The notes beneath the pieces were generated by a model. That model made no database searches and had not been told where the DNA came from. It saw only the letters and a list, made by a program, of their open reading frames with translations. From Leptospirales bacterium (GTDB lineage Bacteria; Spirochaetota; Leptospiria; Turneriellales; JAOUFE01), in NCBI GenBank assembly GCA_040326155.1, contig JBEQLE010000002.1, forward strand, positions 1 to 64,000: a DNA stretch of 64,000 bases, read 5' to 3'. Position 1 is the stretch's first letter, and each line of letters starts with the position of its first letter. The translations under genes were made by a program, and so were the position numbers. Below, one piece after another: positions 904 to 64,000 of this stretch.

Positions 904-1785
904 ATGGACCATTTAGAGAAACTTGAGAGCATATCTGTCTATATTTTGCGGGAAGCTTATGCGAATTTTAAAAATCTGGGCATGTTGTGGTCGATTGGCA
1001 AAGACAGCACTGTCATGTTATGGTTGGCCAGAAAGGCATTTTATGGTCACGTACCTTTTCCCCTGGTTCACGTTGACACGAATTTTAAGATACCTGAAAT
1101 GATTCGCTACCGTGATGAACTGACCCGAAAATGGAAGTTAAACATGGTTGTCGGACAAAATGAAGACGCCCTGGAGAAAAAACTTACTTTTCCTGATGGG
1201 AATGTAGACCGACTGACTTGCTGTGGTCATTTGAAAACTCAGGGTTTAAAAGATACTTTAAGCGGAAGCGGAAAACGGTATCGCTTTAACCACGACATAG
1301 ATCAATACGAAGTCGATAAAAGTACCGAAGCTTTTACCGGAGTTATTGCCGGTGTTCGCGCTGACGAAGAAGGTTCTCGTTCTAAAGAACGCTATTTTTC
1401 GCCACGAGATAAAAACAACGATTGGGACCTTGGCGACCAGCCCCCCGAATTCTGGAATTATTATAAAACTGATTTTGCCCCTGGCACTCACCTGCGCATT
1501 CATCCCCTGCTCGACTGGACTGAACTTAATGTATGGGAATATATTCAACGTGAAGAGATTCCCACGGTTTCTCTCTATTATGACCAGGGTGAAGGAACCC
1601 GCTATCGATCGCTTGGGTGCTACCCTTGCACGACTCCCATTGAGTCGAAGTCGACAAATGTGGCTGAAATTATTAAAGAGTTACAAAGTGGTGACCTGAA
1701 GAATATAGCCGAACGTTCCGGGCGAGCCCAGGACAAAGCGGGCGGCGGCGGCCTCGAAGATTTAAGAAAACAGGGATATATGTAA
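904..1785 (+). CDS. cysD: Sulfate adenylyltransferase subunit 2
   Basis: [21 protein letters not shown] and [10 protein letters not shown] motifs; C-terminal LRKQGYM. Confidence 0.96.
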
Positions 1786-1786
1786 G

Positions 1787-3592: not shown

Positions 3593-3597
3593 AAAAT

Positions 3598-4383
3598 ATG
3601 AGCATAAAAATTGAAGATATAATTACCCTGGCTCGCGAAGCCGGAGAAGCCATACTTGAAGTCTACAAAAGGGACTTTGATGTTGAAATAAAAGATGACA
3701 AGTCTCCCCTTACCGAAGCAGACAAGAAAGCAAACGAAATTATCGTGGCTAAACTCAAAGAGCTCTACCCTGAAATTCCTATTTTATCGGAAGAAGAAAA
3801 GGCTGCCGCCTATGAAACCCGAAAACAGTGGGGAACTTTCTGGTTGGTAGATCCACTCGATGGCACAAAAGAGTTTATAAAAAAGAATGGGGAATTTACC
3901 GTTAATATTGCCTTAATTGAAAATCATACTCCGGTTCTTGGAGTCGTTTTTGCCCCTGTACTCGATAAAATGTATTATGGTACAACTGAAAATGGATCGT
4001 GGTTGAGTACCGAAAAAGCCGAACCGGTGAAATTACCGAGAATTACCAACGACGAAAAAGAGAAAGCCATGACCGTGGTGGCCAGTCGTTCTCATATGTC
4101 CGAAGAGACAGAGCAATTTATTGAAGCTTTAAAGTCGAAAACAGCATCCGTAAATACCATTTCTATTGGAAGTTCACTCAAGCTCTGCCTTGTTGCTGAA
4201 GGCGAAGCCGATGTGTACCCCCGCCTCGGACCTACTATGGAGTGGGACACTGCCGCTGCTCACGCTGTTGTGGTAAATGCTGGAAAAAAAGTTTTGGTAT
4301 ATGAAAATGGAGCAACAACTGAAACCTCACTCTCTTATAATAAAGAGAACTTGTTAAATCCTTTTTTCGTTGTTACTGAGTAG
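3598..4383 (+). CDS. cysQ: 3'(2'),5'-bisphosphate nucleotidase
   Basis: KDDKSPLTEAD, LSEE, WLVDPLDGTKEF, GSSLKLC and TMEWDTAAAHA motifs. Confidence 0.95.
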   Translation: MSIKIEDIITLAREAGEAILEVYKRDFDVEIKDDKSPLTEADKKANEIIVAKLKELYPEIPILSEEEKAAAYETRKQWGTFWLVDPLDGTKEFIKKNGEFTVNIALIENHTPVLGVVFAPVLDKMYYGTTENGSWLSTEKAEPVKLPRITNDEKEKAMTVVASRSHMSEETEQFIEALKSKTASVNTISIGSSLKLCLVAEGEADVYPRLGPTMEWDTAAAHAVVVNAGKKVLVYENGATTETSLSYNKENLLNPFFVVTE

Positions 4384-17699: not shown

Positions 17700-19712
17700 A
17701 TGTATAATACTAACCACAAAGATATTACAGGCTATCGTCCTCATATTGACGGCTTACGTGCTGTCGCTGTTTTAGCTGTAATCGTGTATCACTTTAGCAT
17801 GAAATTATTGCCCGGTGGTTTTGCTGGTGTAGATATTTTCTTTGTTATCTCCGGCTATGTCGTGACGGCCACAATTTTTCGCTACGAAAGCAACAGCCTG
17901 AAAGAGTACTTGCTCTCTTTTTATGCCAGGCGAGCGAAAAGAATTCTACCGAATTTAATTCTTGTAGTTCTGGTCTTTTCAGTGGTCAGTTTTTTGTTTA
18001 TTCCTCCGATCAAAACCGGAGTGATAATGAAAACGGCGTACTACTCGTTATTTGGCGTCAGCAATTTTTATCTGGCTCACACCAATTTTGATTATTTTGG
18101 TATAGGGGGTAACTTTAATCCGTTTACCCATACATGGTCTTTAGGAGTTGAAGAACAGTTTTATGTTATATACCCGTTAATTATATACGCAATTTATTTT
18201 TTCTTCAAAAAATCCCATAAGATCGGACTATCACTAATCATTTTCCTTGGAGCTCTGTCTATTGGCATTTCTTTGTATTTAGTGATGAATAATCCCACAA
18301 ATGCATACTATTATATGCCTAGCCGATTTTGGGAACTCCTCGCCGGGGGCGGTTTATTTTTAGCGAAGGCTGGCGGTTTTCAACCTGAAAAAAAGCTATC
18401 GTATAAGAGCGCTACCGCGTGGCAATTCATTGGCGCAGTGTTAATTGCACTTGGTCTTGTTTACGCTTCGCTTGACAACGGTTTTCCGTTACCGACAGTT
18501 TTGCCCTCCATAATCGGAACAATGATTGTAATAATGATCGGTACGGCAGGAAATAATCCGGTTGCCCGTTTTTTATCAGCAAAACCCATTGTATATATCG
18601 GGCTTTTATCGTATTCATTATATCTTTGGCATTGGCCGGTTTTTACCATATTTCGATGGTCAATCGGTTTGGATACTTTTGGCACAGCAGCGGCTGCTAT
18701 TATTTTGACATTTATTTTCGCGTGGTTGGCTTATACTTACATAGAACAGCCTTTTCGAAAAGTAAAGGTTGTGAATATTCAATATAAAGTGCTCGTAATT
18801 GCCGTCATCTCTTTGGTTTTCACCGGATTTATCGTTAAAAAGGGCCATAAGAAATTCAAGAGATTATCCAATAATGGATATAATCCCATTATTTTTCAGA
18901 ACATTGATGTTCCGACAAAGCAATGGCCCCCAAGTATTAAGGAATGTCATTATAAATACTATAAAGACTCTGAAGAAGATGCGATTAAACGATGTTTAAG
19001 TAGAAATATAAATCCTGAACCGTCCCGTACAGTTTTTTTGTTAGGCGATTCGCATGTTCAAGCTCTTTCGTTTATGGTCAACGATGCTTTTAAAGATTCA
19101 AAAACGCAAGTTAACCAGATGCATAATAATGACATCCCTAAGATTTTAAATAATGAAAGCCCGGAACCTCTCTCTTTTGAATTTGTAGCCAGACACGCCA
19201 AACAGGGCGATCTTGTAATCGTCAGTTATTTTCATGGAAAATATTTCAATACACAATACCATATACCATTGGATTTAGAACCGATGGAGCAGGATAAAGT
19301 ATATGCAAAGTATCAAAATAGTTTGCAGTATTTTACCGAATTTGCCAAAAAACTTTCAAAAAAAAAGGCAAATCTTCTACTGATTATTGACGTACCACAA
19401 ATGAAAAATCCCGTACGAGTACAGCAATGCATTGTTCAGAAAAAACTTGATTTACCAAATGCATGCGATGTATCATCAAAACAGGCCCTACATTCTCGTA
19501 AACCAATGACTTTGCTGATTAATGAATTATCCGGGACAATTGACAACATATACTCATGGGATCCTTTTCCTATTGTTTGTCCCGGCCCGGTATGCCGGTT
19601 CCATGATGAGCGCGGGTTCATCATGAGTGACCATAACCATATTTCAAGAGAAATGTCGGAGTCTATGGGTGGTGAATTTCGAAAATACTTGCTTCAAATA
19701 GATTTAATGTAA
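17700..19712 (+). CDS. OafA-like O-acyltransferase (Acyltransferase_3 + periplasmic SGNH)
   Basis: YRPHIDGLRAVAV, GVDIFFVISG, HTWSLGVEEQFY and SYSLYLWHWP; SGNH motifs GDSH and DHNH. Confidence 0.92.
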   Translation: MYNTNHKDITGYRPHIDGLRAVAVLAVIVYHFSMKLLPGGFAGVDIFFVISGYVVTATIFRYESNSLKEYLLSFYARRAKRILPNLILVVLVFSVVSFLFIPPIKTGVIMKTAYYSLFGVSNFYLAHTNFDYFGIGGNFNPFTHTWSLGVEEQFYVIYPLIIYAIYFFFKKSHKIGLSLIIFLGALSIGISLYLVMNNPTNAYYYMPSRFWELLAGGGLFLAKAGGFQPEKKLSYKSATAWQFIGAVLIALGLVYASLDNGFPLPTVLPSIIGTMIVIMIGTAGNNPVARFLSAKPIVYIGLLSYSLYLWHWPVFTIFRWSIGLDTFGTAAAAIILTFIFAWLAYTYIEQPFRKVKVVNIQYKVLVIAVISLVFTGFIVKKGHKKFKRLSNNGYNPIIFQNIDVPTKQWPPSIKECHYKYYKDSEEDAIKRCLSRNINPEPSRTVFLLGDSHVQALSFMVNDAFKDSKTQVNQMHNNDIPKILNNESPEPLSFEFVARHAKQGDLVIVSYFHGKYFNTQYHIPLDLEPMEQDKVYAKYQNSLQYFTEFAKKLSKKKANLLLIIDVPQMKNPVRVQQCIVQKKLDLPNACDVSSKQALHSRKPMTLLINELSGTIDNIYSWDPFPIVCPGPVCRFHDERGFIMSDHNHISREMSESMGGEFRKYLLQIDLM

Positions 19713-19916: not shown

Positions 19917-20159
19917 ATGAGTAACGCAGATCAAATAATTAAATATATTACGGATGAGATTTTAGAGGATGAGGATCAAGTGATTGATGAGCAAACATCT
20001 CTTTTTGACGGGGGAGTTCTGGATTCTTTGAACCTAGTTACACTTATTTCATTCCTGGAAGATACTCATAAAATTAAAATAAAATCCTCAGAGGTAACTC
20101 TTGAAAATTTAAATACGGTTTCAAATATGATTAATTTTATTGATAAAAAATTAGCTTGA
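19917..20159 (+). CDS. Acyl carrier protein (DltC-like), cassette 1
   Basis: LFDGGVLDSLNLVTLISFLE contains the phosphopantetheine Ser; acidic 80-aa protein. Confidence 0.92.
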   Translation: MSNADQIIKYITDEILEDEDQVIDEQTSLFDGGVLDSLNLVTLISFLEDTHKIKIKSSEVTLENLNTVSNMINFIDKKLA

Positions 20160-21229
20160 GACAGATGAATAGACAATATCGAATATTACTTTGGTTCGTA
20201 TTCAGTTTTGTAACACTACAGGTTTTCGGGGAAGTACTTTTATCTATGGACTACCCATGGAAACTCAGTGTACTTGAACCATACCTGCTTCGGGGGAAGC
20301 AAGATGCATGGGTGCATAATGCATTTGAAATCCAAAGATTAAAGAAACTGGCTAAAACCGATAAAGAAATTAAATTAATCGTGTATTTGGGCGGCTCGGT
20401 TTGTGCTTCCGGAATAACCTCGGATGAAAAAGTCAGCAAACAACTTTCGACAGCACTTAAAAAGTCGGTTGTTTTTAGCCGACTTTGTTCCCCTTACAAG
20501 TCATTTGCCGATGAACTTAAAATAGTAGAAGAGCTTGGGGCAATCAATGCTACGATAATAATAAATACTGAAATTGGTAGATTTAGTCGGCCGAATGAAA
20601 AACAATTAGTAACTAGGAAGGATAAAAGTAAGTATTCATATAATAAATATTTCTACATACCTGTTACCGAAAGTATCAAAACTATATTTAAAGAATACAA
20701 TATTTCAATAGAGCTAAATCAGCATTTCAGATTATGGAAAACAGCTAAAGCATTGGGAATATCGATTCGAAAAAGATTTGTTAAACGTAAAAAATTGACC
20801 TATCATTATAATGGATACGTGTCGGGGACCCCTGTTAATGAAGACCATAAAACAGAGATAGAAGCTAGATTGACGGAAAGTAAAGGTAAATGGGGACAAA
20901 CTCAGGAATTTCAAGTTAATTTTTCACTCTTGAAAATGGCTATCGAAAAAGCCCAGTTGAATCAGAATCGTGTAATTTTAGTAGAGACTCCGGTGAACCC
21001 TTTGTTTGTTAAATATACCGAAGCAAACAGGTCTGAATATGAGAGTATTTTAAATCAAATTATAAAGTCACAAGGCCTGGGCTATCTCGATTTGCGGTAT
21101 GCTCTTAACTGGAAACCTGAAGAGTTTCGAGATTTGCATCATATGATTCATCCTGGCCCGGACCGATTTACCGCGATATTGGCCAAACGACTTAGTGAAA
21201 TTTTATTAAATATGGATTTACATAAATGA
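20156..21229 (+). CDS. Membrane-anchored SGNH/DltD-like acyltransferase, cassette 1
   Basis: N-terminal TM helix, VYLGGS (candidate catalytic Ser), ETPVNP, and C-terminal FRDLHHM (DxxH); lies between the ACP and the MBOAT. Confidence 0.7.
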   Translation: MRQMNRQYRILLWFVFSFVTLQVFGEVLLSMDYPWKLSVLEPYLLRGKQDAWVHNAFEIQRLKKLAKTDKEIKLIVYLGGSVCASGITSDEKVSKQLSTALKKSVVFSRLCSPYKSFADELKIVEELGAINATIIINTEIGRFSRPNEKQLVTRKDKSKYSYNKYFYIPVTESIKTIFKEYNISIELNQHFRLWKTAKALGISIRKRFVKRKKLTYHYNGYVSGTPVNEDHKTEIEARLTESKGKWGQTQEFQVNFSLLKMAIEKAQLNQNRVILVETPVNPLFVKYTEANRSEYESILNQIIKSQGLGYLDLRYALNWKPEEFRDLHHMIHPGPDRFTAILAKRLSEILLNMDLHK

Positions 21230-22404
21230 TTTTTTTTAACGAGTATTTTGTTTTGGCATTATTAGCCGCTCCCGTGATTTATTGGAAATTTGTACCTGAA
21301 AAGTATAGAAACCTGTTTATTATATTTTTTGGATTTATTGGTTTATCCTTTGTTCAGTTAAATTTCAGTATTTTCCTGATGTTAATCGTTGTGTTTGTAT
21401 TTTACGCGGCCCGCTTTATGCAACGATCCCATAAAGGCAGAGTATTAACTTTAATAATTATCGTCCTGACATTATTGCTTGCAGGTTTTAAATATTTTAA
21501 GGTTTTTTATCTAGCAATTTTTGAAGCTGAAACTGATTTTTCTAAAAGCTACCTGGTGCCGCTTGGTTTATCATATCTGATCTTTAAACTGATTGCCTAT
21601 GTTGTCGACATTTTTCGAGAAGAAATCAAAGAATCTAGTTTGCAAGGTTTACTTGCCTTTATCTTTTTCATACCAAGTTTTCCTGCCGGTCCGATTGAAA
21701 GATATCAACATTTTATTTCGGGAAGACGCAATAGCTTTGATTCCACGTTTTATCTCGCAGGCTTGAAGAGATTGACCATTGGCTATTTTAAAAAAGTTGT
21801 TCTTGTAAACTTTTTATTAACATACATCGTAAACACAAAGCTCTCCGGAATTCTGGATACAGACCAGGGAGCATTATATGGTTCTTTCATTGCATTGTCC
21901 TTTCTGGTAGGTTCTCTGGTTTACGCTTATATCGATCTGTCAGCCTATGCGGATATTGCCATAGGTTACGGGCAATTATATGGCTATCAAATATGTGAAA
22001 ATATGAATTATCCGTTATTTGCCCAAAACCTGAGTGAATACTGGCAGCGCTGGCACATGTCTCTATCCCAGTGGTGCCGCAATAATGTCTATTTCCCGAT
22101 GCTAGGGTCGACGCGTAACAATAATATTTCTTTATACGCTAGTTTTCTGGTAATGGGCTTATGGCATTATGCAAGTTTAAACTGGATATTGTGGGGTCTC
22201 TGGCATGCCAGCGGTATAATCATATATTCAAAATTGAATCGATTTCGAAAGAAGAAAAAGATTAAAAAACTTTTGCCAAAAAAAATTGGGTACGCTGTTG
22301 GCATGGCAATTACCGTTATCTATTCCGGTTTAGGTTTTGCCTTTATTACCCAGAAGACGACATCGGAAGCTTTAAAACTGCTTGGCAAAGTATTTGGTCT
22401 ATGA
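21226..22404 (+). CDS. MBOAT acyltransferase (DltB/AlgI family), cassette 1
   Basis: PLGLSYLIFK, AGPIER, YWQRWHMSLS and GLWH (catalytic His) motifs. Confidence 0.93.
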   Translation: MIFFNEYFVLALLAAPVIYWKFVPEKYRNLFIIFFGFIGLSFVQLNFSIFLMLIVVFVFYAARFMQRSHKGRVLTLIIIVLTLLLAGFKYFKVFYLAIFEAETDFSKSYLVPLGLSYLIFKLIAYVVDIFREEIKESSLQGLLAFIFFIPSFPAGPIERYQHFISGRRNSFDSTFYLAGLKRLTIGYFKKVVLVNFLLTYIVNTKLSGILDTDQGALYGSFIALSFLVGSLVYAYIDLSAYADIAIGYGQLYGYQICENMNYPLFAQNLSEYWQRWHMSLSQWCRNNVYFPMLGSTRNNNISLYASFLVMGLWHYASLNWILWGLWHASGIIIYSKLNRFRKKKKIKKLLPKKIGYAVGMAITVIYSGLGFAFITQKTTSEALKLLGKVFGL

Positions 22405-22411
22405 GGTTAAC

Positions 22412-22534
22412 ATGGTAGAAAGAATCAAAGAAGCAATGATAGGTTTTATTTGGGCACTGTTTGTGCTCTTTATCTTGTTTGTTCATTACACCTTATGTGA
22501 AGCAGTTCCGGTTTTTCGATATGAAGGTTTTTAG
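22412..22534 (+). CDS. DltX-like 40-aa membrane peptide (not in the ORF track)
   Basis: Hand translation: MVERIKEAMIGFIWALFVLFILFVHYTLCEAVPVFRYEGF*. GAGG RBS at 22403-22406, one TM helix, C-terminal FRYEGF; fills the MBOAT-VOC gap. Confidence 0.85.
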   Translation: MVERIKEAMIGFIWALFVLFILFVHYTLCEAVPVFRYEGF

Positions 22535-22537
22535 AAA

Positions 22538-22942
22538 ATGGAATTTCACCATATTGGAATCGCTGTAAAAAAATTAACGGAATCGTCCGTTTTGTTTGAA
22601 AATATTCTGGAAACTGCCTTTTCAAATACCGAAGATGTTGATTCACAAAAAGTTCAAGTGACTTTCGGCGGCGGAGTGGAATTATTGCAGGCGACGGATA
22701 TCCATTCCCCGCAATTTCCCATGATGAAACATCCCATTCTCAGCCATCTCGATAAGCACGGAGAGGGGATTCATCATATTTGTTTTTCAGTTGAAAATCT
22801 GGAAGCAAAAGTAAACGAACTGAAAAAATCCGGCATAAAACCATTGACCAATGATCCGATCATTGGGGCCGGCGGCAAAAAGGCAATTTTTCTACATCCG
22901 AAAGACTGTAATGGGACTTTAATAGAGTTGATGGAAAAGTAA
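22538..22942 (+). CDS. VOC-superfamily protein, methylmalonyl-CoA epimerase-like
   Basis: FHHIGIAV, VELLQ, GEGIHHICF and FLHPKDCNGTLIELME metal-ligand motifs. Confidence 0.85.
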   Translation: MEFHHIGIAVKKLTESSVLFENILETAFSNTEDVDSQKVQVTFGGGVELLQATDIHSPQFPMMKHPILSHLDKHGEGIHHICFSVENLEAKVNELKKSGIKPLTNDPIIGAGGKKAIFLHPKDCNGTLIELMEK

Positions 22943-24427
22943 ATGAGCGATATAATTAATTCCCCCCTCGATTTCTTAACGGAGCATTCATTGAAAAGCC
23001 CCGGAAAATGTGCTATAAGAATCAACAATATTGATTATACCTATGATATGTTTTCACGCGAAGTAGGACTTTTCGCGAAACTGTTCAAGTCGCACGGAAT
23101 CGGGCAAGGCAGTTTGGTTGCAGTATACTCTGATCATGAGTTTGACGTATTATGCACTATTTTTGCATTATGGACAATCGGTGCCGTTTGTATACCAATA
23201 AATCCAACTTATAAAACGGACAAATTACAGCAAATCGAATCGACAGTTCGGCCTGATTTTGGTTTTTATTCTGTTGATTATGATATAACATACGATCGCC
23301 AATATCCGATGTCTTTGATTGAAAAATCAAATGAACCCGGAAATGTGGAGGTTGTACACCCGAAAGCGGATGACCCGGCTATGATTATGTTTACTTCGGG
23401 AACATCGGGAGTTCCCAAAGCGGTCCCCATTACGCATGGTGCGATTGCAAGGAATTCACTGAGTACGGCAAGTCGGCTTGGTTTAACGAAGGAAGATGTT
23501 CTTTTTATTAATACGCCCCCTTATACGACTAGTTCAATTATTCATGTATTAACAATGATGTCACAAGGCGCTCAGACCGTTATTGATCGAAGTTTTTTAT
23601 TTGGCGCCGCCATTATCGATAAAATAGAAGAGCATCAATGTACTTGCTTTGGGGGAGTTCCGATTCATTTTACTCGATTACTTGCTGCCTTAGAAGAAAA
23701 AGATGCACCGAAAAAACTTCATAAGCTAATTAATTCAGGGGATCATTTATCTGTTCCTGTGCTGGAAAAACTACAAAAATTAATGCCGCAGGCCGCCATG
23801 TACTGCATTTACGGGCTTACTGAGGTAGCTGGCAGACTGTGTGTTTTACCTCCGGAACTCGTACGCAGCAAATCAGGTTCCGTTGGATTCCCTATTGAAG
23901 GGATGTCCGTAACGATTAGAGGTTCCAAGCTGGAGCTCCTTCCTGCCGGGGAAACAGGCGAGGTTTTTATTCAGGGCCCGAATTTAATGAAAGGTTACAT
24001 AAATAACCCGGAGGCTAATGAAAAATCGATGACCTCGGTGGGATTTGCCACCGGCGACTTCGGTTATTTGGACAGCGACGGTTGCCTTTATTTAAAAGGG
24101 CGGAAAGACGATATTTTTAAGGTTGGCGGTGAAAAAGTCAGCGTGAAAATGATAGAGGAAGCTCTTGTTGGTTACGAAGAATTTGCGGACGCAATGGTTG
24201 CTCCAGAATACGATGAACACATGGGTAATTACATACCCTGTCTTTATTATGTTCTAAAAAAAGATGCAACCTTTAGTCGTAAGAAACTATTGGGGATACT
24301 CAGGAAACGTCTTCCGCAAAACCATATACCCACAAAGTTTGTGGAACTCGAAGAAATACCGCGAACAAGCTCGGGTAAGTCCATCAGAAAAGTTCCTTCG
24401 CCGGGGCAACCATTGAAGCAACAATAA
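22943..24427 (+). CDS. ANL-superfamily adenylating enzyme (acyl-ACP/CoA ligase), cassette 1
   Basis: FTSGTSGVPK, YGLTE, ATGD, GRKDD.FKVGG and PRTSSGK motifs. Confidence 0.92.
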   Translation: MSDIINSPLDFLTEHSLKSPGKCAIRINNIDYTYDMFSREVGLFAKLFKSHGIGQGSLVAVYSDHEFDVLCTIFALWTIGAVCIPINPTYKTDKLQQIESTVRPDFGFYSVDYDITYDRQYPMSLIEKSNEPGNVEVVHPKADDPAMIMFTSGTSGVPKAVPITHGAIARNSLSTASRLGLTKEDVLFINTPPYTTSSIIHVLTMMSQGAQTVIDRSFLFGAAIIDKIEEHQCTCFGGVPIHFTRLLAALEEKDAPKKLHKLINSGDHLSVPVLEKLQKLMPQAAMYCIYGLTEVAGRLCVLPPELVRSKSGSVGFPIEGMSVTIRGSKLELLPAGETGEVFIQGPNLMKGYINNPEANEKSMTSVGFATGDFGYLDSDGCLYLKGRKDDIFKVGGEKVSVKMIEEALVGYEEFADAMVAPEYDEHMGNYIPCLYYVLKKDATFSRKKLLGILRKRLPQNHIPTKFVELEEIPRTSSGKSIRKVPSPGQPLKQQ

Positions 24428-24447
24428 GGTGAAAGTGATAAAATAGA

Positions 24448-25848
24448 ATGACTATGCAAAGAATAACAGTAATTGGCTTAAGCGGCTCAATACGTTCCAA
24501 TCACAACCATTTTAAAACATTGAATCAAATGATTGTAAAAGCAAAAGATCGTGCTGAATTTACCACCTTATTGAAAAATTCGGATTATGTCTACTCGAAT
24601 ACCGATATTGCGTTATCTGTAGCCCTTCTCGGAGCAAAACAAAACGATGCCGATGTAAAGATTATTTCTCTTACCGATTTATTCCGGCATAGAAATGAAA
24701 AGCTATACGAAAATCTGACGGAGATGGTAACCGTCAATGATATTGAAGAACTTGATACGTTGAGTATTGATCAAGAACATTTAAAAAATATTTCTAACGA
24801 CATTAATAAGGCCGATGGAATAATCATGGGGACCCCGGTATATTTTGGTGATCGTTCATCGGTTGCAAATAAAATATTACAATTAACCAGCATTCAAAAC
24901 CAACTGAGAAATAAGGCAATCGGCGTGGTATCGGTCGGAGCCAAACGCAATGGTGGTCAGGAAACTGCAATTATATATACTCTATACGAAGTCCTGATGC
25001 AAGGTAGTATTATTACGGGAAACGGTCCGAAAACCGCCCAGTATGGTGGAACGGTTGTGGCGGGTGATTCGGGTATGGCGATTGAAGATAACTTTGGTAT
25101 GGACACTTCTTACGGAACCGGGAAACAAGTGTCACAACTATCCAAAATATTAAAAGCGGGCCAAGAAAAATCCGGAGGTTCTCCCAGAGTAATATTTTTA
25201 CTTTCTATGGATACTCCAGAGAAAAAATATAACAAGATTTTAGATGAGTATATTTCACGCCAGCAAGAACTGACCAATTATGAGACTGTCGATTTAACTG
25301 ATAAAAATATATATCGTTGCATTGCATGTAATGTTTGTCCGTCCGTAACAGTTAAGAAAAGGAAGGAATCCGAAGTTTCTCCGTATACTTGTGTTATTCA
25401 AACGGAAAAAGATTACATGAAAGAGCTCCGTTTAAAGCTTATAGACGCTGATGTTATTATTATTGTCGGAGTAAATTCAAATGAGAACTTAACATATCGT
25501 TATCAGGCTTTTATGGAGAGAACCCGGTTTATTCGCAGGGAAGACTTCGAATTGACTAACAAAGTAATAACAAGTTTATTAATTAATGATGTTGGCTCCA
25601 TGCATAATCCGATCTTTGGAGTAAAAGTAGTTACTTCCTTTATTCGCCATAACACATTTATGACTACTCCCTTGCAAATTATGATGCATAATAATACAAT
25701 AATTAGAGAAGACTCTTTAGATGATTCTTTCCCAAATTTCAAGCAAATTCTAAACGGAAGAAAAATGGTACAACCGATCAAAGTAAGTTATAAAGCTACG
25801 GGATATGCAAATAAATCACTAGACAACTCGGAGACCAAACGCCAATAA
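24448..25848 (+). CDS. Tandem flavodoxin-like (FMN reductase/Isf-type) protein with a Cys cluster, cassette 1
   Basis: GLSGSIR, GTPVYFG and GAKRNGGQE in the N-domain; CIACNVC-x17-C in the second domain. Confidence 0.8.
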   Translation: MTMQRITVIGLSGSIRSNHNHFKTLNQMIVKAKDRAEFTTLLKNSDYVYSNTDIALSVALLGAKQNDADVKIISLTDLFRHRNEKLYENLTEMVTVNDIEELDTLSIDQEHLKNISNDINKADGIIMGTPVYFGDRSSVANKILQLTSIQNQLRNKAIGVVSVGAKRNGGQETAIIYTLYEVLMQGSIITGNGPKTAQYGGTVVAGDSGMAIEDNFGMDTSYGTGKQVSQLSKILKAGQEKSGGSPRVIFLLSMDTPEKKYNKILDEYISRQQELTNYETVDLTDKNIYRCIACNVCPSVTVKKRKESEVSPYTCVIQTEKDYMKELRLKLIDADVIIIVGVNSNENLTYRYQAFMERTRFIRREDFELTNKVITSLLINDVGSMHNPIFGVKVVTSFIRHNTFMTTPLQIMMHNNTIIREDSLDDSFPNFKQILNGRKMVQPIKVSYKATGYANKSLDNSETKRQ

Positions 25849-48453: not shown

Positions 48454-49377
48454 ATGAGCAATGAAATTGATACAAAAGTCGCTTTTATAGTCGGATCGCC
48501 CCGATCAGGGACGACGATATTAGGGGAAATACTTAATGAACACCCCCGTATGGCGCAATGGTATGAGCCTTATTTTATCTGGGATAAACATTTTCGAAAT
48601 GCGGAAAATGACCGGCGCACCCCGGAAGACGCGGAAATAAAAGTAGTCGATCAAATTCGAAAAGATTTCAGTCGTTATGCAAAAAACAGAGTAGTGGATG
48701 TTGTCATTGACAAGTCGCCGCGCAACAGTTTAACTATTGAATTCATCCTCGAGATCTTCCCGAACGCAAAATTTATTCATATATTACGCGACGGACGCGA
48801 TGTAACCAGTTCCATTCACCGGGAATGGAACAAAAGAATAAGTATTTTTAATAAAAATAATCGAGAACAAAAATTTGATTATAAGGCCGCTTTTTTAACT
48901 CTAAAAACATGGTTAGATCGACAACCCTTTTTGAGAGACAAATTGCGTGCATTTTGGCATGAAACGAACGGGCATTTATTCAATAAAGGAAAAACTTTAA
49001 ACAGGACGCGTTGGCATGGAAGAGTCGGATGGGGTCCACGCTATCAAAACTGGGAAGAAGATTTAATATCCGGAGAATTGATTGAGTTCAATGCAAGGCA
49101 ATGGTTGAACTGTGTTGATTCCATATTCAAGTCATGGCCGAAAATAAAAAAAGAAAACAAGCTTCTCATTAGATATGAAAATATGTTAATAAATCCGGAG
49201 AAAACTCTTTCTCAAGTCACAGAATTTCTCGGACTGGAGCCGTGCGTTGAGGTGACTGAAGCCGGTAAAGTTTTACGTCCCGGTAATACCGGGAAATGGG
49301 CCAAAGATTTATCGTCTGAAGATGTGAAATTGATTACACCGATTATTAAACCTATGCTGAAAAAAATCGGCTACTGA
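48454..49377 (+). CDS. Sulfotransferase
   Basis: IVGSPRSGTT, DKSP, IHILRDGRDV and IRYEN motifs. Confidence 0.9.
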   Translation: MSNEIDTKVAFIVGSPRSGTTILGEILNEHPRMAQWYEPYFIWDKHFRNAENDRRTPEDAEIKVVDQIRKDFSRYAKNRVVDVVIDKSPRNSLTIEFILEIFPNAKFIHILRDGRDVTSSIHREWNKRISIFNKNNREQKFDYKAAFLTLKTWLDRQPFLRDKLRAFWHETNGHLFNKGKTLNRTRWHGRVGWGPRYQNWEEDLISGELIEFNARQWLNCVDSIFKSWPKIKKENKLLIRYENMLINPEKTLSQVTEFLGLEPCVEVTEAGKVLRPGNTGKWAKDLSSEDVKLITPIIKPMLKKIGY

Positions 49378-55866: not shown

Positions 55867-56757
55867 ATGAAACTATATAAGTATTATAATTTATTTTCAC
55901 GATGGAGCTTCAGCAAAAAGGTATTCAATTTTTTAATACGGCGTACTTTTTTTCAAAAAGTAATCGGATTATTTTCAAAACCTGTTGAGCCTGAGAAATG
56001 GGTTTTTATTTTGGGTTGTTATAACTCTGGAAGTACTTTATTAAGTCAAATTCTCGGTGCTCACGATTCGATGTCCAGCCTGCCGATTGAAGGAGTTTTT
56101 TTAACGGAACAACTGCCTTCGCCTGAAGATTACGGGTGGCCTCGAATGTGGATAAAGTGCAGCGACAAAGTCGGTTTGTCCGGTTTTTCCGAAGAGCAGT
56201 TGGCCCAAAAAGCCCGGAAAGTAAAAAAGCAGTGGTCGAGTTGGTTCAACCCATCCAAAAAAATCTACGTAGAAAAATCAATCGCAAACGCAGCGCGAAT
56301 CGGTTTTTTCAACAAACAGTTTAGTTCGGCATATTTTATACATATAGTCAGAAACGGTTACGCTGTATCCAGGGGCATACAAAAAAAAGCGAATCCCGCA
56401 AAGTGGGGAAATCGTGAATTTGGCGACTCCTACCCACTGGATATGTGTGCCAGACAGTGGGCTGAAACCGACGAGACAATTCGAAAAGCAAAACCAGAGC
56501 TTAATCACTATTTGCAGATCTCTTATGAAGATTTAAGTGACCGTTCCATGGAGACGCTGAATAAAATTACGAAATTTTTAGGCGTGGGGCCGTTCGATAA
56601 ATCGGTTCTGGAGGTAGAGTGGAATTTTGGCTCTGTTACATCAAAGTTGAAAAACATGAATTTTCTGGTTCTCGATAAGATTTCGCCAGAGGAAAAAAGG
56701 GAAGTCCGAAAAGAGGGCAAAGAGATTCTAAAAAAGTATGGCTACGAAAAAAAGTAA
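55867..56757 (+). CDS. Sulfotransferase
   Basis: FILGCYNSGST, VEKS, HIVRNG and ISYEDL motifs. Confidence 0.87.
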   Translation: MKLYKYYNLFSRWSFSKKVFNFLIRRTFFQKVIGLFSKPVEPEKWVFILGCYNSGSTLLSQILGAHDSMSSLPIEGVFLTEQLPSPEDYGWPRMWIKCSDKVGLSGFSEEQLAQKARKVKKQWSSWFNPSKKIYVEKSIANAARIGFFNKQFSSAYFIHIVRNGYAVSRGIQKKANPAKWGNREFGDSYPLDMCARQWAETDETIRKAKPELNHYLQISYEDLSDRSMETLNKITKFLGVGPFDKSVLEVEWNFGSVTSKLKNMNFLVLDKISPEEKREVRKEGKEILKKYGYEKK

Positions 56758-58114: not shown

Positions 58115-58823
58115 TTATAAGTTCTGTTTCAGAAGTTTAAGAACATAAGGCATATAATAAGCGCGACCATTATCATTTAAATGAGCTTGGTCTGCAAAAT
58201 AAATATCATTTTTAATAAGCATGTTTTCGGGAATTCGTATATGAGCTAAATTCATATATTTCTCTTCCAGCTCTGCCATTTTTTTGTTAATAACAGGGTT
58301 ATACTGGGGTTGGGGTAAATCCAGAATGATCAGTTTAATTCCTTTTTGTTCACATAACAAGTACAACTCTTCGAGTAAATGGAAACTTATGTCCGTCCAA
58401 TTCTGGTCGGAAGTTATCGATTTTTTTTCTTTGTAGCTGATTTGACCAAGCTTGTTTTGTTAAATCATCCCACGTTTCCGTGCGAACTTTATTTCGATAT
58501 CTTTTCTTGTTTTGTGGCATTACCTCTGTGTTGTGCGGCAAGTTTTGAGACTTAGCATATGGAAAATTTCGTTTTATAAATTTAGTGGAACTTTTTAGAT
58601 AGTATATATACGGATTTATTAGCCGGACTATTTTGTAGGATAGTTTAATATCGTCTTTTTTCAATCCGTATAATTCCGTGAATCTATTTTGCCTCAAATT
58701 GGGTATATCTTTTGAACTTTTTTCCGGTGTTTGTTCTTTTTGTCGAGTGGTTGTTTTATAGAGGTAAAAAACAAAAGATGAAAATAATAGAAATATGAAA
58801 ACATGAATGACAGTAGATAACAT
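58115..58823 (-). pseudogene. Frameshifted, internally shortened DltD-like/SGNH paralog
   Basis: ORFs 58350-58823 and 58115-58366 both align with the 63349-64000 protein (INPYIY/INPYVY; LYLLCEQKG..IILDLPQ; YFADxxHLND.GRAYY). Removing one base from the T8 run at 58421-58428 joins them. Confidence 0.75.
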
Positions 58824-58976: not shown

Positions 58977-60377
58977 ATGAATACCGTTGTTAAAATTATA
59001 GGTCTAGTCGGTTCCATTCGTTCAAACCACAATCATTTGGATGAGCTTTCTCAGATCATCCATGTGTCTGCAGATCTTGATACGCTTTTGAAAAACATCA
59101 AGGCTTGCCCTCATGTGTTTTCAAATACCGATATTGCTGTAGCAGCAGCACTCATGGGGGCAAAAAGTAACGGCGCCGCCGTTGAAATTATTTCTCTCGT
59201 TGATTTGTTCCGCCACCGGAGCGAAGATTTATACAAAGAACTGGATAGCTTTGCGACGATCGATGATCTTGATGAAATTGACACGTTATCCATTAATGAT
59301 AAAGCCCTTGTTTCGATTATGCAATCCCTGACAGAGTGTCATGGTATCATCCTCGGGTCTCCCGTTTATTTCGGAGATCGTTCTTCGGTCGCGAATAAAA
59401 TTCTTCAACTGACCGGTAAATCTGATATTTTGAAAGATAAAGCTTTTGGGTCGGTTGCCACCGGTGCGAAGCGAAATGGGGGTCAGGAGACGACAATTAT
59501 TTACACGCTATACGAAGCCATCCTTCAAGGAGCAGTTGCCGTGGGCAATGGGCCAAAAACAGCTCAGTACGGTGGGACCGTATATGCCGGCGATGTCGGT
59601 AAGGCCGTTGAAGACGTCTTCGGTATGGATACCTCTTTTGGAACGGGTCGTCAGGTCGCGCAGCTGGCAAAAATTATTCAAGCCGGTACGATCAGTCCGG
59701 CAAAGCGAAAACCCAAAACCCTGTTTTTAGTAACTATGGACAATGCCGAAAAAAAATATCAGAAAACTCTGGAAGATTATATTAAAAAGCAAAAACATGA
59801 GTTTGACCATGAAGTTGTTAACCTGACTACGGAAAATATTTATCGGTGTATTGCCTGCAGTGCCTGTCCCTCGCCTGCTTTAACCGAAAAGTATAAAGAT
59901 CAGGAAAATCCATATACTTGTGTCGTCCAAACTTCGAAAGATAATATGAAGTATCTGCGGGAAAAAATGGTAGATGTCGACGTTATCGTTCTAGTTGGAG
60001 TAAATACCAATGAACCGCTTACATATCGCTACCAGGCTTTTATGGAGAGGACCAGGTTTATACGACGTAACGATTTCGAGCTTACGAATAAAATTATTCT
60101 GAGTTTAAATATTGAGGAAGTCGGGGCGACTAAGAACAATATTTTTGACGTTAAGGCAATTACGTCTTTTATTCGTCATAATACCGTCATTGTGAAACCG
60201 TTACAGTTGATTTTTCACAAGGGTAAAATTCTGGTAGAACCTGATTTCGCAGAATATTTCCCCATTTTTGATAAAATTGTAAATGGACGTTTTGAAATCG
60301 ATCCTTTTGAAGTGAGTTATAAAGCGACAGGGTATGATAACAAAACACTGGACCATACTGCGGCAATCCGAAGGTAA
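58977..60377 (+). CDS. Tandem flavodoxin-like Fe-S protein, paralog of 24448-25848 (cassette 2)
   Basis: Same length (466 aa); shares GSIRSNHNH, PVYFGDRSSVANKILQLT, GAKRNGGQE, CxxCxxC-x17-C and YRYQAFMERTRFIRR. Confidence 0.85.
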   Translation: MNTVVKIIGLVGSIRSNHNHLDELSQIIHVSADLDTLLKNIKACPHVFSNTDIAVAAALMGAKSNGAAVEIISLVDLFRHRSEDLYKELDSFATIDDLDEIDTLSINDKALVSIMQSLTECHGIILGSPVYFGDRSSVANKILQLTGKSDILKDKAFGSVATGAKRNGGQETTIIYTLYEAILQGAVAVGNGPKTAQYGGTVYAGDVGKAVEDVFGMDTSFGTGRQVAQLAKIIQAGTISPAKRKPKTLFLVTMDNAEKKYQKTLEDYIKKQKHEFDHEVVNLTTENIYRCIACSACPSPALTEKYKDQENPYTCVVQTSKDNMKYLREKMVDVDVIVLVGVNTNEPLTYRYQAFMERTRFIRRNDFELTNKIILSLNIEEVGATKNNIFDVKAITSFIRHNTVIVKPLQLIFHKGKILVEPDFAEYFPIFDKIVNGRFEIDPFEVSYKATGYDNKTLDHTAAIRR

Positions 60378-60381
60378 TTGT

Positions 60382-60504
60382 TTAGAAACCCATATAACGA
60401 AACGGGCGAAAACCGGCATTTTTCATGAGTACAACGATGAGAACTACCCAGTATAAGATAGAAAAAAGAAATCCGTAAAACAATGACCTGAATAATAATT
60501 TCAT
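60382..60504 (-). CDS. DltX-like 40-aa membrane peptide (not in the ORF track), cassette 2
   Basis: Hand translation of the reverse strand: MKLLFRSLFYGFLFSILYWVVLIVVLMKNAGFRPFRYMGF*. AGGAGA RBS at 60509-60514, one TM helix, C-terminal FRYMGF; directly follows the MBOAT. Confidence 0.87.
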   Translation of the reverse strand: MKLLFRSLFYGFLFSILYWVVLIVVLMKNAGFRPFRYMGF

Positions 60505-60513
60505 AGTTTCTCC

Positions 60514-61728
60514 TTAATTAAACAGAATTGCAAACGCGTAAGAATACAACTTTACTACAACCTGAAAATCGTGTACGGCTACCATCACAAACACAAATGA
60601 AACAAAATATATTGTAATTATATTACCGGTAATGCGCAGGAACAATGCGCCTGCCTTGTTGTTTTTCATCCGTTTAAACCATCTCATTTCCCGAATTTTA
60701 CCGTAAAAGTTGATTCCAGTTGCATGTAATATTGCCCAGGTTATCCAGTTTAATGTTAATGCGTGCCATATTCCGATGGTCAACATGCTCAGGTAGGTCG
60801 ATATCCAGGCTTTTTTAGTTTTAATTAAGGCTGGAAAAAAAACATAGTCTCGTGTCCAGTTTGATAAAGACATGTGCCACCTTTGCCAGAACATGGAAAG
60901 GTTGCTTGCCAACAGAGGTTTGTTAAAATTTTCCTGATGGGTAAAACCCAGTAATTTAGAAAAAGATTTACTGATTTCCGTATACAACATTAAATCGAAG
61001 TAGGCATGGATGAAAGCGCTAAAACCAAAAAGTGAGAGTTTCAGAAAAAACAAATGGTCTTTCCCACTATCCATATTTTGCATTAGTAAAGGTAACGTTT
61101 TCTCGTATGTGTATTGGTATAAATAATTATCGATAAGCAAAAATTTCACACTTATGGCGGTAAATAGTAAAAGGTAAATATTACGACGGGGCTTTCCGGA
61201 AAACTGTGTTTCGAGATATTTAAAGTCACGAAATCTTTGAATAGGGCCGGCCAGTATTATTGGGAAGAAAAAGACGTATGAATAATAATCTATCGGGTTT
61301 ATATTTTCGAACTCCTTCGGACGATTCGCATAATCAATCATCATCGATAATAACCTGAAATAGTAATAAGAGACGCCTAAAGGTATATATGGATTTTCAA
61401 TGTTCAGAAAATACTGGTAATCTTTTATCAGTAACAAGAGCCCGATGGAGCATAAGACAAACAGAGATAACTTTTTTTTAATCTGTATTTTTTTGTATAT
61501 AAGAATATAAACAATGGTTGATAATAACAGCAGTTGAAAAAATGACCCTACGTCGAGCCAGATTAGAAGTCCACCGGAGATGATAATGATAAGGGACTTT
61601 TTTTTATGGATATTTTCATTTTTAAAAGACCATTCAAGAAAAATGATAATAGATATTACAATAATGATAAAAAAGATTATAAGGTTATCGCCCAGAAAAT
61701 CTGCAATTTCTAAAATAGTTTCCAGCAT
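60514..61728 (-). CDS. MBOAT acyltransferase (DltB/AlgI family), cassette 2
   Basis: PLGVSYYYFR, AGPIQR, ENFNKP, FWQRWHMSLS and GIWH motifs. Confidence 0.93.
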   Translation of the reverse strand: MLETILEIADFLGDNLIIFFIIIVISIIIFLEWSFKNENIHKKKSLIIIISGGLLIWLDVGSFFQLLLLSTIVYILIYKKIQIKKKLSLFVLCSIGLLLLIKDYQYFLNIENPYIPLGVSYYYFRLLSMMIDYANRPKEFENINPIDYYSYVFFFPIILAGPIQRFRDFKYLETQFSGKPRRNIYLLLFTAISVKFLLIDNYLYQYTYEKTLPLLMQNMDSGKDHLFFLKLSLFGFSAFIHAYFDLMLYTEISKSFSKLLGFTHQENFNKPLLASNLSMFWQRWHMSLSNWTRDYVFFPALIKTKKAWISTYLSMLTIGIWHALTLNWITWAILHATGINFYGKIREMRWFKRMKNNKAGALFLRITGNIITIYFVSFVFVMVAVHDFQVVVKLYSYAFAILFN

Positions 61729-61734
61729 AATTTT

Positions 61735-63075
61735 CTATAACGGTTTTAAGTCTTTTAAAAGCCGACCAATTTCCTTTCTATCAATTTTCATCGTCTGGGT
61801 AAAAGGAAAATTTTCCATGGTGTAATATTTATGCGGCAACTCGTTATTTTCAAGTTTACCCTTAAGTTTTTTAATAAGTTCTGAGCGTCCTATTCCGCAA
61901 TCTCCTTCAAACACAAGGCAGATTAAATTTCCCAAGGTGGGGTGTTCCTGCGGGACCACAGCGATGCCGGTCTCGGGAAAAATTTCCGTTACCTTGCCCT
62001 CGATGTGTTTCAAAGAGACTTTATTGCCCCCGACTTTTATTTCATCGTCGCTTCGACCTGCCAGGACCATCACCCCATGGTCTGTTTTAACAATGTCGCC
62101 AGTTGCATGCCACTGTATGGATTTGTCAAAAATGCCGTTGCGAATATATCCCTGGAACAGGAAATCTGACTTTACGTACAACTGCCCTTCTCTGGTCTCG
62201 TACTCCATTCCCTCTATGCAATTGCCGATTCCGTCAATAAGTTCGGGAGCCATCGACGAGTTTACCGGTTGAATAAAAAAGCGACCACCGAGTTCGGCCA
62301 GCCCGTAGACTTTGAAAAAAACAGCTTCGGGAAATTTTGACAGAATACTTGTGATGGAATTTTTATAAATAAAATCTCCGGATGTAAAAAAGAATGCCGG
62401 TTTATAATTCGGTTTGATTTTCGCCAGCGACATTAGTATGTGCATGGGAGAACCCAAAATGGAACAATTTTCATTTTTTTCCAGTATTTCGGGAAGAGAA
62501 TCAATATGATCGAAATCGGAAAAAATTAAAAAACTTTCGGTAATATAATGAACAAGAAAATGACTCAATGCACTCATCAGGTAAGGTTTAAGCATGGTAA
62601 TTCCGGTGAAACCCGAAAGGCCCATCGCGCTTGCCGTTTCTCTGGCATTGTCAAAAAAGTGTTTTTTTACATGGACAATCCCTTTGGGGGTTCCCGTGCT
62701 TCCGGATGAAAAGATGATGGTATCAAAATCTATTTTTTCCATTGCCTCGACTTCCGTGAAATCGGGGTTTTCAGTGATTTGAATTTTTTCATCATTGTAT
62801 TGTATAACGTGAGTGTAGTGTGGAAATATTTTTTTTCCCTGAAAGTGATCTCTTGTCGGGAAAATGACTTTGGCATCGGCTTTCCACGCGGCAAATAATA
62901 TTGTATATAACTCTATTGGGTTTTCAGTGGCGATTAAATAAAAACGTTCGGGAGCCGACGGTATGGCTCCGGTCAATAGGTTGACACGTTCGGAAAACTC
63001 GGTGTCAGTCATCGATGTATCACGATACTGAATCAGTTTCCGGTTTTCGTGTTTGCTTAACAGTTGATCAAGCAT
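61735..63075 (-). CDS. ANL-superfamily adenylating enzyme, cassette 2
   Basis: FSSGSTGTPKG, YGLAE, ATGD, GRSDDEIKVGG and PFTQTMKIDR motifs. Confidence 0.9.
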   Translation of the reverse strand: MLDQLLSKHENRKLIQYRDTSMTDTEFSERVNLLTGAIPSAPERFYLIATENPIELYTILFAAWKADAKVIFPTRDHFQGKKIFPHYTHVIQYNDEKIQITENPDFTEVEAMEKIDFDTIIFSSGSTGTPKGIVHVKKHFFDNARETASAMGLSGFTGITMLKPYLMSALSHFLVHYITESFLIFSDFDHIDSLPEILEKNENCSILGSPMHILMSLAKIKPNYKPAFFFTSGDFIYKNSITSILSKFPEAVFFKVYGLAELGGRFFIQPVNSSMAPELIDGIGNCIEGMEYETREGQLYVKSDFLFQGYIRNGIFDKSIQWHATGDIVKTDHGVMVLAGRSDDEIKVGGNKVSLKHIEGKVTEIFPETGIAVVPQEHPTLGNLICLVFEGDCGIGRSELIKKLKGKLENNELPHKYYTMENFPFTQTMKIDRKEIGRLLKDLKPL

Positions 63076-63328
63076 TGTTATTATTCAACTTGGTTTCAAG
63101 ATAATCGACGATACGATTCACCGTTCCGAGTGTATCAAGTGTAAGGTCGAAAGGGTCGATCGATATGGAAAACTCAGTTTCCATGAACATGATAACCTGC
63201 AGAACATTGATTGAATCGAGAAAGTCATTTTTAAATATTTCTTCATCAACACTTGTCAGTGTTTTTCCAGCGAGAGTTTCCACCTCTCCTTTTATTTTGT
63301 TTATTAGTTTCGCTCTTTCTATGGCCAT
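63068..63328 (-). CDS. Acyl carrier protein (DltC-like), cassette 2
   Basis: FLDSINVLQVIMFMETEF contains the phosphopantetheine Ser. Confidence 0.9.
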   Translation of the reverse strand: MAIERAKLINKIKGEVETLAGKTLTSVDEEIFKNDFLDSINVLQVIMFMETEFSISIDPFDLTLDTLGTVNRIVDYLETKLNNNNA

Positions 63329-63348: not shown

Positions 63349-64000
63349 TTAATTCCCAAGCAGGGGTTTTAGTGACTTTACTATATAAGGAAAATAATAG
63401 GCACGACCTTGATCATTCAAATGGTTTGTATCCGCAAAATAATTTTGATTTCCTTTCATCATGTACGGTGGTATTTCGATATGGACTATGTTATTATATT
63501 TATTTTCCAGATTTTTCATCTTTGCCATAATCAAACTACTTTCATTGCGTTGGGGCAGATCGAGAATAATGAATTGATACCCTTTTTGCTCGCATAACAA
63601 ATAGAGTTGTTCAAGAAAATAAAAGTTGATTTCTATAGACCGGCGCACTATCTCTTTTTTCTCCTCGCTATTCCTCCCTTTCTTGTGTTTTTTGCGCTTT
63701 AAAGATGTTGGTCGAACTTTATTGCGATATTCCTTCATGTTTTGTATAATAGGACGCTCATCATGGAATAAATTATTCAGTCCTGTTCGATTCAATTTCC
63801 ATTTAACAAATATGATTGCATCCTTAAGTGCATATACGTATGGATTGATTTTAGCGGCAAATCGATAAGAAAACTTTGGCTTGTTCCCATGGTTCCCGTA
63901 TTTGTTTTTATAATCTTCCATTACTTCAAGTACTTTATTCGATTCTAAAAAATAAGGATAATCACTGCCGTTCAAATAATTTACTTTGGATATTCTGCTT
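63349..64000 (-). CDS. SGNH/DltD-like protein, cassette 2 (5' end beyond the window)
   Basis: Frame stays open to the window edge; IILDLP and YFADTNHLNDQG (DxxH); upstream of ACP, ligase and MBOAT. Confidence 0.7.
   Translation of the reverse strand, partial: SRISKVNYLNGSDYPYFLESNKVLEVMEDYKNKYGNHGNKPKFSYRFAAKINPYVYALKDAIIFVKWKLNRTGLNNLFHDERPIIQNMKEYRNKVRPTSLKRKKHKKGRNSEEKKEIVRRSIEINFYFLEQLYLLCEQKGYQFIILDLPQRNESSLIMAKMKNLENKYNNIVHIEIPPYMMKGNQNYFADTNHLNDQGRAYYFPYIVKSLKPLLGN

Follow-up and report, generated by a model that had tools for sequence, protein, structure and literature searches.

A tyrosine-tailed microprotein encoded with a short DltB-type MBOAT in a Leptospirales polysaccharide locus: a probable stand-alone counterpart of DltX

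Introduction

In the D-alanylation of teichoic acids in Firmicutes, which is encoded by dltXABCD, the microprotein DltX hands the acyl group to the serine of DltD and carries the motif FXYXXF, according to the parts of PMC12148441 covered here; the DltX family is described in PMC5541007, likewise covered in part. The same parts of PMC12148441 state that other MBOATs carry this hexapeptide fused on two extra helices, that the hexapeptide is acylated in DltX and PatA, and that MBOAT pathways other than Dlt have no DltX-like microprotein. In the literature searched (titles, the beginnings of abstracts, and parts of PMC12148441 and PMC5541007), no such microproteins were found outside the Dlt pathway. 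The kind of molecule and the chemistry discussed below are already known, and what is new relative to this partly covered literature is the probable occurrence of stand-alone shuttles with short MBOATs outside the Dlt pathway.

Here we describe two cassettes with such microproteins in a Leptospirales bacterium, within a stretch of 64,000 nucleotides that we call the window. Like DltX, the window peptides have about 40-50 residues, one transmembrane helix, a C-terminal FxYxxF and an invariant tyrosine, and their partners are also a motif-less short MBOAT, a carrier protein, an AMP-ligase and an SGNH protein with a predicted DltD fold. Unlike DltX, they end in FRYxGF rather than FIYNEF, and their genes follow the MBOAT gene, whereas the DltX gene comes first in its operon. 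They belong to a host outside the Firmicutes, and they are encoded among polysaccharide genes, which include those for an ABC-2 exporter and sulfotransferases, rather than among teichoic acid genes. A 466-aa FMN_red-like protein beside each cassette is a further difference from the Dlt operon. The tail of the long MBOATs (PatA, AlgI-type; PMC12148441, in the parts covered) has the same hexapeptide and the same tyrosine, but in the window a gene of its own encodes the tail, which sits on one helix, and the acyl group presumably comes from an acyl carrier protein and not from acyl-CoA. The dlt(X)ABCD genes of Dickeya and Pectobacterium, known here from their description in the covered parts of PMC5541007, which cites them, also combine Dlt-type machinery with a diderm host and a surface glycan as the supposed target, but the window has two cassettes in a single locus, both of them much more divergent.

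Two cassettes in one polysaccharide locus

Cassette 2 is an operon in the order DltD-like SGNH protein, carrier protein, AMP-ligase, MBOAT and peptide, with all genes on one strand and neighbouring genes either overlapping or at most 20 nt apart. Its features, and the neighbouring gene on the opposite strand, are as follows.

58977..60377, plus strand: FMN_red-like protein beside cassette 2, 466 aa (Pfam FMN_red, E 7.6e-16)
60382..60504, minus strand: microprotein 2, 40 aa plus stop, read directly from the sequence
60509..60514, minus strand: AGGAGA ribosome-binding site of microprotein 2, with a 4-nt spacer to the ATG, read from the sequence
60514..61728, minus strand: short DltB-type MBOAT 2, 404 aa, no tyrosine tail at the C terminus (Pfam MBOAT, E 9.7e-13)
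61735..63075, minus strand: AMP-forming ligase 2, putatively in a DltA-like role, 446 aa (Pfam AMP-binding, E 2.6e-11)
63068..63328, minus strand: carrier protein 2, putatively in a DltC-like role, 86 aa (Pfam PP-binding, 20.9 bits against a cut-off of 20.8 bits)
63349..64000, continuing to position 64545 of the contig, minus strand: DltD-like SGNH protein 2, 398 aa, membrane-anchored, ORF taken from the contig

The translation of microprotein 2 is MKLLFRSLFYGFLFSILYWVVLIVVLMKNAGFRPFRYMGF. It has lysine and arginine residues at the N terminus, a hydrophobic helix at approximately residues 8-27, and the end ...FRPFRYMGF, in which the tyrosine is Tyr37. The start codon is an ATG (60504..60502) located 9 nt after the stop of MBOAT 2 (TAA, 60516..60514), and the AGGAGA site overlaps the final base of this stop. 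The two frames are in phase, with the TAA and three codons between them (60505-60516, minus strand), a phase not shared by the metagenome contig L111, which is described below. The first-pass annotation, made from the sequence of the window, had reported a 40-aa ORF on the minus strand after the second MBOAT with an AGGAGA site, and its coordinates, sequence and description are all correct. Microprotein 2 has the architecture of a DltX-type shuttle, that is, about 40-60 residues, a single transmembrane helix, an FXYXXF end and an invariant tyrosine, and it is encoded together with a tailless MBOAT, a carrier protein, an adenylating ligase and a DltD-type SGNH protein.

Cassette 1 spans 19917..25848 and contains the same parts as cassette 2 in another order, plus a VOC-fold protein.

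19917..20159, plus strand: carrier protein 1, 80 aa (Pfam PP-binding, E 1.4e-7)
20156..21229, plus strand: DltD-like protein 1, 357 aa (Pfam DltD, E 1.5e-5, 25.0 bits against a cut-off of 22.7 bits)
21226..22404, plus strand: short DltB-type MBOAT 1, 392 aa (Pfam MBOAT, E 2.7e-21)
22412..22534, plus strand: microprotein 1, 40 aa plus stop, with the end ...VPVFRYEGF, read from the sequence
22538..22942, plus strand: Glyoxalase/VOC-fold protein within the cassette (Pfam Glyoxalase_4, E 1.1e-15)
22943..24427, plus strand: AMP-forming ligase 1, 494 aa (Pfam AMP-binding, E 1e-62)
24448..25848, plus strand: FMN_red-like protein of cassette 1, 466 aa (Pfam FMN_red, E 5.5e-22)

Microprotein 1 starts 7 nt after the stop of MBOAT 1 and has a GAGG sequence 5 nt upstream of its start; its length of 40 aa presumes the ATG at 22412. 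The two peptides were noted earlier to be of equal length, with mostly different transmembrane segments and a shared tail, and the alignment bears this out, since both have 40 residues, of which 10 are identical, five of these within the tail.

Both short MBOATs belong to Pfam family PF03062, with 48.5 and 76.7 bits against a cut-off of 27 bits, and the residues His285, His322 and His335 of MBOAT 2 are invariant across 20 short MBOATs. In NCBIfam, MBOAT 2 matches only DltB (TIGR04091), over its full length (E 4.3e-36), and DltB is also the sole significant match of MBOAT 1, again over the full length (E 1.8e-42). However, the scores of the two proteins, 124.9 and 145.9 bits, are under the cut-off of 375 bits. 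The ligases reach 55.2 and 146.4 bits against the 559.85 bits set for DltA (TIGR01734), and the NCBIfam matches of ligase 2 are acyl-CoA ligases and DltA, every one of them far under its cut-off. The best match of carrier protein 2 is DltC (NF003464, E 5.2e-7), with the two carrier proteins at 29.6 and 33.9 bits against a cut-off of 68 bits. Since ligase, MBOAT and carrier protein all fall under the cut-offs for DltA, DltB and DltC, D-alanine as the cargo is not supported. The low Dlt scores and the accompanying FMN_red-like and VOC-fold proteins are arguments that D-alanine is not necessarily the cargo.

The DltD-like protein 2 has no match to the Pfam DltD family, and only one homologue, with 53% identity, was retrieved when it was used as a homology query. 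An alignment with 14 other neighbours of short MBOATs shows no variation at Asp372 and His375 and almost none at Gly119 in the GGSS sequence. An AlphaFold2 model of the protein (mean pLDDT 68, pTM 0.64) was compared with the PDB, and the eight best matches were DltD chains from four entries (E 2e-4 to 2e-2), followed by ordinary SGNH hydrolases. The TM-scores of 0.31-0.35 are low because much of the model is of low confidence. The comparison supports a DltD fold for the modelled protein. A degenerate second copy of the gene is found at 58115-58823 on the minus strand. It consists of a 157-codon frame with a similar N-terminal helix and the blocks INPYIYYLK and YRNKVR, and an 83-codon frame in another phase with the C-terminal Asp-x-x-His block (FADQAHLN), while the GGSS serine region is missing.

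The FMN_red-like gene beside cassette 2 is convergent with micro-ORF 2 and ends 4 nt from the stop of the peptide. The FMN_red domain is located in the N-terminal part of the 466-aa protein, and the C-terminal half is cysteine-rich. Copies are also found beside short MBOATs in L111 (605-2005, 84% identity) and in the Pseudodesulfovibrio MAG loci L031 (499-1902) and L032, with 35-36% identity. It may serve the cassettes as a conserved accessory enzyme for tailoring the acyl group.

The remainder of the window constitutes a surface-polysaccharide locus with genes for sulfate activation, a NusG-like factor, an ABC-2 exporter pair, nucleotide-sugar enzymes, NeuB, glycosyltransferases, three sulfotransferases and an AT3-SGNH acyltransferase. 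At its start (904-4383) are genes for a PAPS_reduct/CysD-like protein, a GTPase-APS-kinase fusion and a CysQ-like phosphatase, and sulfotransferase genes are placed at 48454-49377 and 55867-56757. The product of the locus is probably a surface glycan that is sulfated as well as acylated. The AT3-SGNH fusion acyltransferase, of 670 residues, is encoded directly before cassette 1 (17700-19712, plus strand), so that both known routes for the O-acylation of envelope glycans, AT3-SGNH and MBOAT-SGNH, are present in one locus.

Fused tails and stand-alone peptides

The genome contains four MBOAT genes. Two of them encode long proteins (487 and 471 aa) that end in FIYAQF and FIYFQF, and the other two are the short MBOATs without a tyrosine tail, each followed by one microprotein. 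A survey of public genomes, performed as a pattern scan with one genome per species and an alignment of both MBOATs as the query, identified 80 loci from many phyla with 26-39% identity. A complete MBOAT frame is present in 77 of these, while L050, L074 and L101 were dropped because the frame is cut.

The fused tyrosine hexapeptide is present in 52 of the 77 MBOATs, which have about 455-680 residues, in a count with a relaxed pattern, in which the first position may also be A or C (for example AIYLNF). None of these 52 loci contains a further ORF with both helix and motif, and a motif-only ORF was found in two of them. Class-level kin, whose genomes have 9-13 MBOAT matches each, show the same arrangement, with a fused tail in all 29 loci examined, two motif-only ORFs and no extra helix-plus-motif ORF, these loci not being mutually independent.

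The other 25 MBOATs are tailless, and most of them have 370-460 residues, with four longer proteins and one fragment. A one-helix micro-ORF with a tyrosine tail is present in every one of the 25 loci. The tail follows the strict motif, [FYW]xYxx[FYW]-stop, in 18 loci and is a variant in seven (FLYLNFK, IIYWDKP, FRYMY, FIYWDQ, FRYILI, IYYLHG and FIYWDM); the latter were recognised by eye just after the MBOAT, outside the strict motif. Most of the micro-ORFs directly precede or follow the MBOAT gene, and five are separated from it by 1.2-1.5 kb. A positive control is included among the 25, namely the dlt operon of Lacticaseibacillus, in which the ORF found is the annotated DltX. When this DltX was used as a homology query it found itself alone. 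Of 20 short-MBOAT loci scanned with Pfam, at least 12 have an AMP-binding enzyme within 4 kb and at least three a PP-binding protein (E <= 1e-4), and these are lower bounds because the picking of ORFs is crude in G+C-rich loci. A lack of enrichment of the motif beside related MBOATs had been named in the first-pass annotation as the finding that would speak against the peptides, and the counts at the 25 tailless and the 52 plus 29 fused loci point the other way.

The micro-ORFs in the seven loci with variant tails (L033, L040, L045, L047, L061, L064 and L089) have the form M..(Y/L)..L...LP..(V/A)A... and keep the tyrosine alone, so that this branch does not depend on the final residue of the motif. 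Two AMP-binding genes are present in each of the five loci scanned with Pfam (L033, L040, L045, L047 and L061), and a radical-SAM gene is found in L033 and L040, both with a SPASM domain, and in L045.

Evidence that micro-ORF 2 is a gene

Among 60 class-level and closer relatives there is no close homologue of MBOAT 2; the best matches have 27-36% identity and almost all are 450-520 aa long. These genomes provide no orthologue for a test of selection. The metagenome contig L111 does contain an orthologue of cassette 2, in which the MBOAT's C-terminus is 87% and the FMN_red-like gene 84% identical to the sequences in the window. Its micro-ORF (477-599) has the same 40 codons without any indel, while the spacers on both sides carry indels. 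According to the Nei-Gojobori method, the two micro-ORFs have 16.5 synonymous differences over 26.3 sites and 10.5 non-synonymous differences over 93.7 sites. The resulting dN/dS is 0.09 for the peptide, while the MBOAT C-terminus has 0.058 and the FMN_red-like gene 0.056. There are 28 nucleotide differences, distributed as 8, 2 and 18 over the three codon positions, and nine amino-acid changes, mostly between similar residues, with the final ten residues identical. Judged by this comparison, micro-ORF 2 is a real gene under purifying selection.

The relatives of microprotein 1 among public predicted proteins have 40-57 residues and 47-59% identity, and two of them have exactly 40 residues; they include P0073 (57% identity, 40 aa), P0005, P0008 and P0072. 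The exact sequences of microproteins 1 and 2 and of the L111 peptide are absent from a collection of 15 billion proteins, and four relatives that were looked up are unnamed or called 'hypothetical protein'. A peptide with the end ...DFRYVGF in L035 sits after an MBOAT that is 51% identical to MBOAT 1. The sole close relative of microprotein 2 is the L111 peptide (78%), the next best having 38-40% identity over 30-37 residues, and a search for homologous proteins with microprotein 2 as the query gave no candidate with shared words. The earlier proposal that both peptides are real genes is borne out for the second by the dN/dS value and for the first by its relatives among public proteins.

The frequency of the tail was examined in the whole genome (4.26 Mb, 39.6% G+C, 171 contigs), where 117 of 413,072 stop-terminated frames end in FxYxxF. 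Of the 72,396 frames with at least 30 codons, 34 have this end, and a hydrophobic stretch resembling a helix is located near the end of 1,236. Both features occur together in four frames, compared with about 0.6 expected under independence, and these four are the two microproteins, one long MBOAT with a fused tail and one DUF5989 protein. A chance origin of the helix-plus-tail peptides beside the short MBOATs is excluded.

It is exceedingly improbable that micro-ORF 2 is an untranslated chance frame in AT-rich DNA. The ORF is indeed short, its exact sequence is missing from the 15-billion-protein collection and the +2 frame over the same stretch is open too, but this reading is contradicted by the dN/dS value, the third-position bias and the indel-free orthologue, by the genome-wide rarity of the helix-plus-tail combination and by the association with tailless MBOATs in 25 of 25 loci, and it was rejected.

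The peptide could also be a C-terminal extension of MBOAT 2 made by read-through of the single TAA, given that the stop-to-stop frame (GET-M...) prolongs the MBOAT 2 frame past this one codon. However, a 1-nt indel in the spacer puts the MBOAT and peptide frames of L111 out of phase, and the frames in cassette 1 differ too, so that a read-through fusion is not the conserved state and was rejected on these grounds. Microprotein 2 also has a strong ribosome-binding site of its own, and in other phyla the micro-ORF is often located upstream of the MBOAT gene or more than 1 kb away, all of which makes an extension very unlikely.

Relation of the microproteins to DltX

The tail tyrosine, Tyr37 in microprotein 2, is the sole invariant column in an alignment of 28 microproteins. 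A profile of this alignment gave 100 matches at E <= 1e-3 among 1.84 billion representative proteins, none of them below 1e-10. As many as 98 of the matches have 38-73 residues and are aligned to the last residue, and 90 end in the strict motif. The most frequent tails are FRYQGF (32), WIYQGF (10) and FKYQGF (8), and 55 have the form F.Y.GF. The commonest tail of the stand-alone relatives is FRYxGF, with 42 of the 98 small matches. The first-pass annotation had regarded FRYxGF as a variant of the shuttle motif. This holds in that the tail recurs; it is, however, no departure from the motif, since it fits the FXYXXF published in PMC12148441, in the parts covered. In these alignments, FRYxGF is a recurrent sub-consensus of stand-alone microproteins from non-Firmicutes, inside FXYXXF.

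Neither of the window peptides matches the DltX family in Pfam (PF12459, formerly DUF3687) at E <= 1, and neither is therefore a member. The same family matches only one of the 28 aligned microproteins, the Lacticaseibacillus control (5.8e-20), and a search of NCBIfam with microprotein 2 gave nothing. A profile-profile comparison with hhalign of 30 non-Firmicute microproteins against six Pfam-positive DltX sequences produced a weak match (probability 21%, E 0.001, 19 columns), in which the end of the helix and the tail are in register without a gap. The alignment indicates that the spacing from the helix end to the tyrosine is the same in the microproteins and DltX. Since the match is weak, shared descent with DltX is not established, and convergence on a short tail is possible. 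We therefore file microprotein 2 as a putative functional counterpart of DltX, expected to work like it while belonging to a distinct sequence family, and not as a member of PF12459.

Alternatively, the place of microprotein 2 in the operon might be incidental, and this small membrane peptide might serve as a toxin, as a regulator, as the precursor of a modified peptide or in some other unrelated role. Nothing specific speaks for such a role except weak Pfam matches at the level of noise. We consider it very improbable, as there is no pattern of genes for modifying enzymes or immunity and the conserved partner across phyla is the short MBOAT.

A proposed role as acyl shuttle

We consider it likely that microprotein 2 is a stand-alone tyrosine acyl shuttle of the DltX type, which would carry its cargo from the short MBOAT to the DltD-like SGNH protein. 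In this route, the AMP-ligase of the cassette would act in the cytoplasm, where it would activate a carboxylic acid and load the small carrier protein with it. Next, the short MBOAT would move the acyl group through the membrane onto Tyr37 of the FRYMGF tail at the outer face. From there, the tail could swing to the predicted catalytic serine of the DltD-like SGNH protein, which would put the acyl group on the surface glycan of the surrounding polysaccharide locus. We infer that the tyrosine is acylated, and we likewise infer the topology, cargo and target of this route. A prediction of the complex from alignments of the MBOAT and the peptide, run without controls, scored 0.02 compared with a mark of 0.32, and we give it no weight for or against the shuttle.

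A role of microprotein 2 in which it only scaffolds or stabilises the MBOAT-SGNH complex, with no acyl group on the tyrosine, is unlikely in our view. It would be compatible with the weak homology signal to DltX and with evidence that is all genomic. However, the residue that is invariant among the 28 relatives is the tail tyrosine and none is located in the helix, the tail is the hexapeptide that is acylated in DltX and PatA (PMC12148441, in the parts covered), and the stand-alone peptide and the fused tail are mutually exclusive.

Implications and related small proteins

The finding that short MBOATs from many phyla always occur with a microprotein points in the opposite direction to the statement on non-Dlt pathways in the covered parts of PMC12148441. 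The model of an acyl-tyrosine shuttle would extend to a broad class of uncharacterised systems for the acylation of surface glycans. The window adds a clean case of two cassettes in one locus and a quantified test of the complementarity between tail and peptide. Gene callers miss such micro-ORFs, and annotators could follow the rule that a tyrosine-tailed micro-ORF is to be expected in the operon of an MBOAT that lacks an [FW]xYxxF end.

A wider generalisation, which we put forward as a tentative and rather doubtful one, is that stand-alone tyrosine shuttles are not peculiar to Firmicutes and belong, as a rule, to every bacterial MBOAT without a fused tail. Such MBOATs would then belong to a large, unannotated family of carrier-fed cassettes for the O-acylation of glycans, spread over many phyla and with a cargo other than D-alanine. 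The window would hold two lines of this kind, each with a private shuttle whose divergent helix sets its specificity for the cassette, and the FMN_red-like enzyme may tailor the acyl group.

The DUF5989 protein among the four helix-plus-tail frames has 56 residues (Pfam E 7.2e-11) and is encoded directly after a carbamoyltransferase gene elsewhere in the same genome (L117; C20:4487-4657, minus strand). It has one helix and the end ...APFVYSLF, which follows the FxYxxF pattern. A literature search for DUF5989 found no paper. These features raise the question of whether DUF5989 could be a tyrosine shuttle for carbamoyl groups. A similar peptide, with the end ...APFIYTIF, adjoins a carbamoyltransferase on the minus strand of L031, beside L031:6691-8547.
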